From: Thermoanaerobaculia bacterium
GTDB lineage: Bacteria > Acidobacteriota > Thermoanaerobaculia > Multivoradales > Multivoraceae
Direction of reading: 5' to 3'
DNA: 64,000 nucleotides
Assembly (NCBI GenBank): GCA_965116445.1
Contig: OZ220688.1
Location: forward strand, 1,349,149 to 1,413,148
Part shown: one piece after another, positions 4,186 through 5,919 of the stretch
Layout of the letters: each line of letters begins with the position of its first letter
How positions within the stretch are numbered: the stretch's first letter is position 1
Program-made: the position numbers and the translations under genes
Notes under the pieces: generated by a model
What the model was told of the DNA's origin: nothing
The model's input: the letters and a program-made list of their open reading frames with translations, nothing else
The model's database searches: none

Positions 4186-5919
4186 ATGAACTCCGCGATC
4201 CTGAAAGCTCTTGAGCGCAGTCCCGGCCTGGTGATCACCTCCCCTTGGGCCAGGACACTCGTGCTGCTCCTCGGCGCGTGCTTCGTTGCCGCAGGTTGCA
4301 GCGAGGACGGCGACCCTGTGCTTCCCACAGCGCCCAAGTTCGTTCTTCAGAAACCGGCTTCAGGCCAAGGCGCCAATGGCGATGGCGATTGGGACGGAGA
4401 CGGCCACGGAGCCGGCGACGGGGACGCATCCCGCGAGCGGCCGCGGGGCCGTCTCTTCCTGGATGGACGCGGAGTCGAGGAGGCCCCGGTCGCTGCCTCG
4501 GTGGGCGGCGATTCGCCGCTCGCTGAACCGCCGGAAGCGATCCGGGTGGATGAGATCGATCAGTTTGACGGCATCGAGTTTGAGACGGATCTCGAACGCT
4601 TCGACCTCGACGGCGACTTCGAGTCCGCTTCGGAGACCTCAGGGTTAACGCTGTCGTCCACGCCCCCGGGAAAGAGCGATCTTGAGGATGTCGACAACAC
4701 GAATGTGGATGCTGACGGCTCTTCAAGCAAGCGACTGCTTGAGGGCATCGACGGCACGGATGTCGGTGTCGTACCCGCAGGTGACGGAGACGGCGACGGC
4801 GACGGGGACGGCGATGGAGACGGGGATGGCGACGGCGATGGAGACGGAGATGGAGACGGGGATGGCGACGGCGATGGAGACGGAGATGGAGACGGGGATG
4901 GCGACGGAGACGGGGATGGAGACGGCGACGGAGACGGCGACGGCGATGGAGACGGAGATGGAGACGGGGATGGAGACGGAGACGGGGATGGAGACGGCGA
5001 CGGGGACGGAGACGGCGACGGCGACGGCGACGGCGATGGAGACGGAGATGGAGACGGGGATGGAGACGGAGACGGGGATGGAGACGGCGACGGGGACGGA
5101 GACGGCGACGGCGACGGCGACGGCGACGATGACGACGATGACGACGATGACGACGATGACGACGATGACGACGATGACGACGATGACGACGATGACGACG
5201 ATGACGACGACGACGACGACGACGACGACGACGGCGACACCGGCGACGATGGCGACGTCGACCCGTCAACTCCTCCGTGGCAGTTCGTTGCGTTCGTTCC
5301 CGCTGCACTCGGCATCAAGATGCCGGCCGCAGGTCGCACGAGGTCGCACTTCACGAAGATCGCCGGGGGAATCGACGTGGCGCCGTTCCTGTCGGAACTC
5401 GCCGCGTCCGCCGAGGGTTGGCTCGTCGACACCAGCCGCCAGCGGAATGTTCGCTGTCAGCGCGACACGCAGAACATCTTCCTGCGCGTAGCCAGGAAGC
5501 CCCTGCCTCCCGGCGCCAGGAACGCGAACGACGTCCACGCAAGCTGCCCGGGGAAGCACGCGGCGGAGTTTCCCCGGACGTTGGCGTTCTGCGAGGGAAT
5601 CGCCGCCCTCCAGGCGGGAGAGCTGGGGCGGGCAACCCTCGTCGCGCTGCAACCCCGCGGCTGGGTGCGACCTCACATCGACGCGGGCGAGTACTACCGC
5701 GTCCGCGATCGTTTCCACCTCGTGCTCCGAAGCCCGGGCGGCAGCCCGCTGATGGCGGGGGACGAAACCGTCGTGATGCACGAGGGCGAGCTCTGGGCCT
5801 TCGACAACAAGGCGAGGCACGATGCGAAGAACCTCACCGAGGAGCCGCGGGTGCACCTGATCTTCGACGTGCTGCCGGGGCCGGGGCGCGGCTACTACGT
5901 CCTGCCGCCGACCGGCTGA
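4186..5919 (+). CDS. Lipoprotein with a long (Gly-Asp)n and poly-Asp acidic tract and a C-terminal aspartyl/asparaginyl beta-hydroxylase (AspH/LpxO/OlsC-type cupin) domain
   Basis: Signal peptide with lipobox [11 protein letters not shown]. About 70 GD dipeptides followed by D32. C-terminal region ([18 protein letters not shown]...[18 protein letters not shown]...RVHLIFDV) matches the Asp beta-hydroxylase 2-His-1-carboxylate cupin. The ORF runs to 4102 in the track; start chosen at ATG 4186. Confidence 0.6.
4781..5262 (+). repeat. Coding tandem repeat: about 70 copies of a 6-nt GACGGN/GATGGA unit, then about 32 copies of a 3-nt GAC/GAT unit
   Basis: Seen directly in the sequence. Translates to (GD)n then poly-D in frame and to RRH/SPSP runs in the antisense frames. 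Confidence 0.95.

Follow-up and report, generated by a model that had tools for sequence, protein, structure and literature searches.

A predicted lipoprotein that joins a (Gly-Asp)n tract to an AspH-family oxygenase, and the three-part gene system to which it very probably belongs

Architecture of the window gene

The DNA analysed here (the window) is a 64,000-nucleotide stretch of contig OZ220688.1 from a Thermoanaerobaculia bacterium of the phylum Acidobacteriota. Positions 4186-5919 of its plus strand form a single uninterrupted open reading frame (ORF) of 577 codons, in which a predicted lipoprotein signal is followed by an acidic leader, a long tract of glycine and aspartate, a linker and a C-terminal Fe(II)/2-oxoglutarate (2OG) oxygenase domain; a second gene, hereafter the partner, converges on it from the minus strand. 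From comparison with related loci, we are confident that this ORF is the fused form of a conserved system with three parts, namely a tract protein, an oxygenase and the partner. Their features in the window are as follows (aa, amino acids):

4186..4299, plus strand: signal peptide with lipobox, aa 1-38 (Cys38); a predicted type II (lipoprotein) signal, from the translation and a PROSITE-style lipobox rule
4300..4779, plus strand: acidic leader of low complexity, aa 39-198; Asp/Glu number 38 and Lys/Arg 12 (net -26), short GD runs included
4780..5127, plus strand: (Gly-Asp)58 tract, aa 199-314; DG motifs, the proposed substrate region
5125..5232, plus strand: Asp36 run, aa 314-349; (GAC GAT GAC)x9 then GACx9
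5233..5340, plus strand: end of the acidic region and fusion-specific proline-rich hydrophobic linker, aa 350-385; contains an internal Met379 (nt 5320-5322)
5341..5919, plus strand: Fe(II)/2OG oxygenase domain of the AspH Pfam family, aa 386-577 plus stop
5895..7484, minus strand: partner gene, ~520-530 aa, with an approximate start (Met, 7484, or GTG, 7451)

The ATG at 4186 lies 5 nt downstream of a GAGG and is the start kept in orthologues, whose N-termini read MNSAILK, MNSQFLK or MNPVSLK; a promoter and terminator scan of the locus gave nothing informative. To call a lipobox we used a PROSITE PS51257-type rule combined with an uncharged hydrophobic region and a basic N-region before it. 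This placed a lipobox at C38 of the window protein and likewise in its relatives at loci L002, L003, L004, L037 and L038, which bears out the lipoprotein signal proposed in an initial annotation made from the sequence alone, and we predict the window protein to be a lipoprotein. A subgroup of relatives (L001, L006, L007 and L009) fails the rule, having Trp in place of the second Cys and a short hydrophobic region. A Tat signal was considered and rejected, as the RRxF motif is confined to the L001 subgroup (VVRRAFAALLGAC) and is absent from the window protein.

The stretch composed only of Gly and Asp is unbroken over aa 199-349 (nt 4780-5232), and the acidic end reaches aa 359; aa 199-359 together comprise 98 Asp and 61 Gly. 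The net charge of the mature protein is -119. It is the single tract of this kind in the 64-kb window. The initial annotation had described it as (GD)70-D32 of about 150 residues, of which the total length stands while the composition is corrected to (GD)58-D36. Its description as a 6-nt/3-nt microsatellite does not hold either: the repeat is not pure, the codons are mixed (GGA 25, GGC 24, GGG 11 and GGT 1 for Gly; GAC 71 and GAT 27 for Asp), and Tandem Repeats Finder reported higher-order periods of 18, 72 and 90 nt. Despite these mixed synonymous codons, the (GD)58 segment has not one non-synonymous interruption. The N-terminal motif of the leader is similar to that of tract lipoproteins from Vicinamibacterales (CGDDSEPLLPAGP).

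The oxygenase domain belongs to the AspH Pfam family

The full protein matched the Pfam profile PF05118 (Asp_Arg_Hydrox) with 63.2 bits (E 3e-17; gathering score 22.6) and the domain alone matched with 66.0 bits, the match running over aa 457-562 (nt 5554-5871) and covering profile positions 51-154 of 157 only. Four residues, H497 (5674-5676), D499 (5680-5682), H545 (5818-5820) and R555 (5848-5850), are invariant in a 44-sequence alignment, and H545 and R555 line up with the equivalent His and Arg in the proline cis-4-hydroxylase 4p7w. By the general pattern of 2OG oxygenases, H497-x-D499...H545 and R555 would be the metal and 2OG ligands. An AlphaFold2 model of the domain, made with 44 homologues, is a double-stranded beta-helix (DSBH; pLDDT 80, pTM 0.80). 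Searching it against the PDB with Foldseek returned L-proline cis-4-hydroxylase (4p7w, E 3e-9), a nucleoside-antibiotic hydroxylase (7v4f, 2e-8), human AspH (5apa and 5jqy, E ~1e-7) and also proline 3-hydroxylase (1e5r); the nearest solved structures are all distant from the domain (TM 0.44-0.59).

The initial annotation had called the domain AspH/LpxO/OlsC-type. Membership of the AspH family is upheld by the Pfam score, the DSBH fold and the invariant triad. The analogy with lipid hydroxylases is not: scores against the NCBIfam equivalogs for LpxO (NF033391, 10.5-13.1 bits against a cut-off of 500) and OlsC (NF052565, 10.5-12.9 bits against 450) are so far under the cut-offs that identity with either enzyme is ruled out. 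LpxO and OlsC share the broad family PF05118 with the window domain, whereas the orthologues here are soluble and have another partner; no lipid-biosynthesis neighbours were seen at the loci inspected.

Eukaryotic AspH, with its junctin and junctate isoforms, likewise shares PF05118 and the DSBH fold with the window domain. The human enzyme has a membrane anchor, an acidic Ca2+-binding region and a catalytic domain, and hydroxylates Asp and Asn in proteins. The resemblance of the window's tract to the acidic region of AspH/junctin, also suggested in the initial annotation, extends to composition and no further: a Pfam search of aa 39-456 detected neither TPR nor any other domain, and the window protein thus lacks the TPR region of human AspH, with which its catalytic domain has 16-20% sequence identity and a TM of 0.42-0.45. 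The window domain also has a complete H-x-D...H triad, unlike human AspH, which is known for a two-His site. Moreover, AspH acts on folded EGF domains, whereas the window protein's likely substrate is its own acidic region.

More than 400 homologues of the domain were found. The best 120 are proteins of 192-237 aa, apart from P0075 (374 aa, with two copies of the domain), and are 70-87% identical to the window domain, with P0116 (64%) and P0075 (46%) lying outside this range. None of 15 aligned single-domain orthologues has a signal peptide or membrane segment. Stand-alone orthologues occur in Acidobacteriota, Gemmatimonadota, Alphaproteobacteria and Gammaproteobacteria, and the alignments identify the window's catalytic domain as orthologous to this signal-less oxygenase of ~200 aa.

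The tract-oxygenase fusion is conserved in Thermoanaerobaculia

Because the closest catalogued homologues are signal-less proteins of ~200 aa, we first suspected an over-extended ORF. Scanning one genome per species yielded a set of 36 loci, and our survey of tracts covers 39. The tract is fused in frame to the oxygenase at every locus of the class Thermoanaerobaculia (L002-L009 and L037, including Candidatus Multivorans and Multivoraceae), as well as in L001 and in the metagenome contig L038. Leaving out L008, an assembly chimera described below, the fusion is present in 10 loci besides the window. Four of these (L002, L004, L009 and L037) are chromosome-level assemblies. The longest GD runs of the fused loci comprise 26-130 repeats and their poly-Asp runs 5-36 residues, giving tracts of ~88-283 residues; their catalytic domains are 81-94% identical. 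A linker motif, DPS[TS]PPWQFVAF[AV]PAA, is kept in all fused loci and is missing from the stand-alone orthologues.

The window is ~90% identical in nucleotides to L002 over the 4.3-kb region compared. Relative to L002, L003 and L004, the ratio of non-synonymous to synonymous substitution rates (dN/dS) is 0.27-0.40 for aa 1-198, the signal and leader, and 0.14-0.23 for the catalytic domain, and indels in aa 1-198 are in frame. The dN/dS values and in-frame indels argue that aa 1-198 are translated in this frame. Taken together, these comparisons indicate a genuine 577-aa product that the class Thermoanaerobaculia has conserved.

The long fused product was absent from the protein collection searched, and for aa 1-198 there was a single catalogued homologue, the pseudogene fragment P0241, among 5.8 billion clusters. 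The closest match to the window protein, P0001 (87% identity, from locus L001), is a mis-called gene. At L001 the frame is open for 522 codons and encodes a signal-like N-terminus, a leader, (GD)62, D8, the linker and the enzyme; the existing gene calls read the repeat in the wrong frame (MVTATAMATA…; a 163-aa ORF at 7513-8004) and start the enzyme at an internal GTG, which yields a 193-aa protein. GD-tract genes are systematically overlooked or put into the wrong frame by gene callers.

Whether the repeat might be an assembly artefact had been raised in the initial annotation. The recurrence of the same in-frame architecture in the four chromosome-level assemblies speaks against this for the window, while one locus justifies the worry for repeats of this kind. 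L008 (JAJEHN010000017.1), a contig of a short-read metagenome-assembled genome (MAG), joins two organisms inside the GD repeat: nt 53-3529 are 97% identical to L021, and nt 3451-8157 are 97% identical to L007. It had been a candidate for a short-tract fused variant with another leader, and was rejected as a chimera of L021-like and L007-like genomes. GD repeats shared between phyla can thus mis-join metagenome contigs. Separately, L003 and L005, on contigs 4 and 7 of one MAG, carry two fused genes, with (GD)53 and (GD)60 respectively, and represent either a paralogue pair or a mixed bin.

Two ways in which the enzyme might remain in the cytoplasm were considered. Initiation at Met379 as the source of the main product was ruled out because this Met is not conserved in the fused clade (Leu in L009, Val in L037). 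A linker acting as a stop-transfer membrane segment was also set aside, because its hydrophobicity is too low (a 19-mer sum of +9.35, compared with a signal value of +2.76) and its middle holds a Pro. The flanks of the linker, acidic on the N-side and basic on the C-side, are as expected of a stop-transfer segment, but it is short, and we retain this topology as a low-probability idea only.

GD tracts lie beside the enzyme gene across phyla

A six-frame scan found a (GD)n(-Dn) tract encoded beside the enzyme gene in 36 of the 39 loci. With few exceptions it occupies the same strand immediately upstream, and in many cases it stops 45-300 nt short of the enzyme gene. In the split loci the tract is usually the C-terminal tail of a secreted protein, with nothing attached to it, and a poly-Asp end is common without being universal; where the carrier is an RTX protein, the tract and the enzyme gene are ~1.1-1.4 kb apart. 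Among the carriers are lipoproteins whose lipoboxes are of several different kinds, large proteins and beta-rich proteins with Sec signals, proteins with N-terminal membrane anchors and signal-less RTX proteins (HemolysinCabind E 2e-43); what they have in common is export and the tract.

Across 34 tracts we counted 2,083 Asp and 1,851 Gly but only 10 residues of other kinds, none of them Glu, with synonymous codons mixed. This amino-acid purity in spite of synonymous diversity points to selection on the peptide. A natural control is a relative, represented by three independent assemblies (L040-L042), that shares the flanking synteny of L001 and is without the oxygenase and partner. At nt about 5800-7100 frameshifts have scattered its tract gene over three frames, and GDE/DDE units, with 18 Glu among 57 residues, are what is left of the repeat. 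A 142-aa ORF after the degenerate tract in L040, considered as another 2OG oxygenase, had no Pfam match.

Eight split loci (L010, L015, L020, L021, L027, L028, L033 and L039) have one stop, and no change of frame, between the ORFs of tract and enzyme, so that one substitution would give a fusion of the Thermoanaerobaculia type. Programmed readthrough or recoding at this stop was rejected, since TAG and TGA both occur there.

The module is 60-70% identical between phyla and its neighbourhoods are unrelated, which suggests that it is horizontally mobile. Ferritin, Bfd and TonB-receptor genes flank it in two of the three stand-alone neighbourhoods inspected: a ferritin, a Bfd-type ferredoxin and a TonB-dependent receptor lie beside it in the gammaproteobacterial L045 (8381-11840), and a ferritin in L046 (2511-2996). 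This may be a hint of a link to iron, or a coincidence. As a side observation, the names of source bins and records (APA_bin, RHO1_bin, Plut_, ROBB21, KELL22 and UUID-named OX/OZ chromosomes; L016-L019, L023, L025, L030, L034, L042 and L001) suggest marine invertebrate hosts, and, judging from names only, there may be an enrichment of the module among symbionts of sponges or corals.

A convergent partner gene accompanies the oxygenase

The partner gene adjoins the oxygenase gene in convergent orientation in all 36 genome loci, with 60-91% identity; these belong to Acidobacteriota (Thermoanaerobaculia, Vicinamibacterales and Bryobacterales), Gemmatimonadota, Gammaproteobacteria and Alphaproteobacteria. 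The 3' ends of the two genes overlap by 25 nt in the window (5895-5919) and in 16 of 33 loci across phyla, and by 12-28 nt in 23 of the 33.

The partner matched no Pfam family (HD families included), no NCBIfam model and no PDB sequence, and has no signal peptide. Its AlphaFold2 model (pLDDT 75) comprises an N-terminal alpha/beta domain and an (alpha/alpha)6 barrel, for which Foldseek returned generic (alpha/alpha)6 matches only, all weak (TM 0.37-0.47). An exhaustive search of 1.84 billion representatives placed it in a family of 1,212 related clusters at 50% identity. Two members, P0246 and P0309, carry fused AspH-like domains, which share 45-49% identity with that of the window. More distant fusions join the partner family to Mur-ligase M/C domains (P0250, P0275 and P0294), to a RimK-like ATP-grasp (P0308) and to a methyltransferase with an FAD domain (P0270), and these hint that the family may take part in a wider chemistry on acidic peptides or polymers. 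The mean net charge is +5.5 for the stand-alone oxygenase and +12 for the partner, and such basic proteins fit the binding of a polyanion.

Comparison with known systems

The closest functional precedent is SmaO, an Fe(II)/2OG oxygenase that beta-hydroxylates both Asp of a DGDG core to L-erythro-beta-hydroxy-Asp; it is strictly Asp-specific, leaving GEG, GNG and GAG variants unmodified, and requires the downstream Gly (Kim et al., J Am Chem Soc 2025, PMC12186529). The SmaO/SmaA/SmaX cluster, which makes a graspetide-type RiPP (a peptide made by the ribosome and modified after translation), resembles the system described here in having an oxygenase beside a ribosomal DG-motif peptide, a second enzyme and enzyme-enzyme fusions (PMC12186529). 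It differs in that the Sma substrate is a short leader-core peptide with two Asp, whereas here tracts of 30-270 residues sit on full-size secreted proteins, and in that its second enzyme, which acts after SmaO, is the HD-domain protein SmaX, whereas here it is an unrelated protein with an N-domain and an (alpha/alpha)6 barrel. Neither an ATP-grasp enzyme nor a PCAT transporter was seen in the neighbourhoods examined.

The Ser-Asp repeats of ClfA and SdrC-E offer a second parallel: they are modified by the dedicated glycosyltransferases SdgA and SdgB and have an imperfect repeat with an 18-nt period (PMC3794999). Like the tracts here, these adhesins contain a long X-Asp dipeptide repeat of variable length with an 18-nt period. 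By contrast, their modifying enzymes are GT-B glycosyltransferases, while the present repeat is Gly-Asp, the enzymes are an oxygenase and a partner without a known family, and the lineages are Gram-negative. The NCBIfam models for ClfA/B and SdrC/D gave 24-30 bits against cut-offs of 999-2500, over the low-complexity tract only. Gram-negative lipoprotein linkers are similar in that a lipobox is followed by a long disordered segment before a folded domain (preprint 10.1101/2021.01.05.425367), but they comprise tens of residues of ordinary composition, compared with ~320 residues here and a pure GD/poly-Asp core that also exists without any domain attached. In the literature searched we found no natural GDGDGDGD protein, no link between PF05118 and RiPPs, nothing informative on poly-aspartate lipoproteins, and no account of GD-tract proteins or of the gene trio. 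The system thus differs from known ones in its partner enzyme, scale and carriers, and there is a substantial chance that it is a new modification system with a new enzyme family.

A proposed modification system and its rivals

Adjacency across phyla, together with two types of fusion (tract-oxygenase and oxygenase-partner), ties the tract, the oxygenase and the partner to one another. The family assignment and the SmaO precedent favour Asp beta-hydroxylation, and the specificity of SmaO fits a Glu-free (DG)n tract; we put it at about an even chance that the tract is the substrate of this reaction. Tentatively, and with rather less than even confidence, we propose a new, horizontally spread modification system in which the oxygenase and a new enzyme family make poly(beta-hydroxyaspartate)-type polymers, or a derivative of these, from the 30-270 residues of (Gly-Asp)n tracts on secreted proteins, the window gene being an enzyme-substrate fusion. 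In such a system the oxygenase, located in the cytoplasm, would use O2, Fe(II) and 2OG to hydroxylate the beta-carbon of Asp in DG motifs, and the partner would bind or further process the polyanionic tract. The carrier would then export the modified tract through a lipoprotein or Sec signal or by RTX/type I secretion. Modification in the cytoplasm before export is the simplest account, because the basic oxygenase and partner are signal-less and the tract proteins are exported by three routes. Outside the cell, dozens of alpha-hydroxy-carboxylate side chains could bind divalent or trivalent metals (Ca2+, Fe3+) with high capacity; cation binding by the tract is plausible, and one of 50-130 hydroxy-Asp would be a strong chelator. 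In Thermoanaerobaculia, where the stop between the tract and oxygenase genes is absent, substrate and enzyme would share one polypeptide behind a lipoprotein signal.

Several points weigh against this proposal. The case for hydroxylation would draw on a family name, on linkage and on one precedent, SmaO, which is likened by activity and motif and not by sequence; and by structural modelling the nearest solved structures are hydroxylases of free amino acids and not of peptides, all of them distant. The lipoprotein signal of the fused form predicts export of the whole chain, oxygenase included. The periplasm is not expected to be rich in 2OG, the signal-less partner would be absent from it, and the folded C-terminal domain would need unfolding for Sec export, with a linker that seems poor as a stop-transfer segment. 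A Gly-free poly-Asp run would not fit the DG-motif rule and may serve another purpose. As to the association itself, the loci are phylogenetically non-independent and the module is apparently mobile, so that co-transfer inflates it; the tract gene is divergent in L012 and L013, no tract lies near the enzyme and partner in L011 or L014 (the latter has a transposase at that place), and L039 has only nine Asp codons before the contig ends.

A different chemistry or purpose for the same enzyme-client relationship, other than Asp beta-hydroxylation for metals, is unlikely but deserves real weight. The three-way linkage would apply to it equally, and its forms could include hydroxylation followed by conversion by the partner, ligation, cleavage, cross-linking, modification of Gly, or control of Asp-Gly succinimide/isoaspartate formation. 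The Mur-ligase, RimK-like ATP-grasp and methyltransferase-FAD fusions of the partner family point beyond hydroxylation, and the conversion of hydroxy-Asp to aminomalonate by SmaX provides a two-step precedent (PMC12186529). The partner, however, does not belong to the HD-domain enzymes or match any family that has been characterised; the data specify no particular reaction, and the Pfam family and invariant triad favour hydroxylation as the first step. It is improbable that the window protein is instead an exported, lipid-anchored hydroxylase acting on lipid A, an aminolipid or another periplasmic molecule, with the tract as a flexible cation-binding tether. The conserved lipobox and signal agree with a tether, as do a tract that could span a periplasm and differs in length between orthologues, and the disordered N-terminal linkers of about half of E. 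coli outer-membrane lipoproteins (preprint 10.1101/2021.01.05.425367); Ser-Asp repeats form stalks in staphylococcal adhesins, although the similarity here is of low complexity only. A lipid substrate is nonetheless at odds with the scores against LpxO and OlsC, and export with soluble, signal-less orthologues of ~200 aa and with an obligatory partner that is cytoplasmic. In most lineages, moreover, the tract is on a different protein, often as a C-terminal tail that tethers nothing, so that a linker cannot be its primary function in split lineages, and a spacer would have no need to exclude Glu (0 in 3,944 residues). Of the length-variable linker that the initial annotation had offered, the variation in length is thus borne out among orthologues and the linker role is not, the same tract standing on separate proteins elsewhere.

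Two further accounts would deprive the fusion, or the association, of a function of its own. That the working enzyme is a short cytoplasmic form initiated internally, at Met379 or at a GTG close by, with the long ORF as a tolerated stop loss or an artefact of annotation or assembly, would sit well with the single stop between same-frame ORFs in eight split loci, with the short form that gene callers choose (P0001), with the repeat-driven misassembly shown by L008 and with the awkwardness of an exported 2OG oxygenase. We consider it decidedly improbable in view of the fusion's recurrence in 10 loci, four of them chromosome-level, with domains 81-94% identical, the conservation of a fusion-specific linker at the protein level, the absence of the internal Met from L009 and L037, and purifying selection on aa 1-198. 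Highly improbable is a non-functional association. On this account the GAC-GGN repeat and the two genes would travel as one mobile cassette or form a hot spot of recombination, or the repeat would regulate in cis the oxygenase gene just downstream of it. The 60-70% identity of the module between phyla in unrelated neighbourhoods would suit a cassette, and the position of the repeat would suit regulation; but the GD frame is always the open one and runs into a signal-bearing N-terminus, its purity amid synonymous diversity indicates selection on the peptide, the carriers are unrelated, so that the tract was gained or kept repeatedly, and in RTX carriers it stands more than a kilobase from the enzyme gene.

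Other features of the window

Upstream of the fused gene, nucleotide homology to L002 begins at nt 3323. A conserved gene for a secreted protein, 5'-cut in the window, occupies 3348-4130, with a stop (3321-3323) just before QEYAQRF; at full length, in L002 and L040, it encodes ~380 aa with a signal peptide. Positions 1-3322 have a G+C content of 0.63-0.645, compared with about 0.69, and contain a GAP1-N1 (GTPase-associated conflict-system) protein gene at 239-1885. The lower G+C, the start of homology at 3323 and the GAP1-N1 gene suggest that this segment is an inserted island. On the other side of the module lie genes for an ApbE flavin transferase (7531-8667) and a DUF3570 protein (8857-10347), both of which are also beside it in L002; the DUF3570 gene encodes an Asp/His-rich stretch, DDDDDHDDDYEDDDHDDGEYDE, at 9403-9468. 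Farther away, 12 tandem copies of a 21-nt unit occupy 48169-48424. Translated from nt 48103 in the third plus-strand frame, they give charged heptads like (AEERKRK)n, possibly a single alpha-helix or coiled segment.

Implications

If the proposed modification system is correct, hundreds of Asp per protein would be hydroxylated within a simple dipeptide repeat, and long repetitive tracts would join short RiPP cores and EGF domains as targets of Asp beta-hydroxylation. It would also provide a first functional handle on a widespread, unannotated family of partner proteins. For the bacteria that carry the module, it would amount to a ribosomal route to a Ca2+/Fe3+-chelating polyanion displayed on the cell or released from it, and so to a new class of bacterial surface or secreted polyanion that would bear on iron or calcium chemistry.

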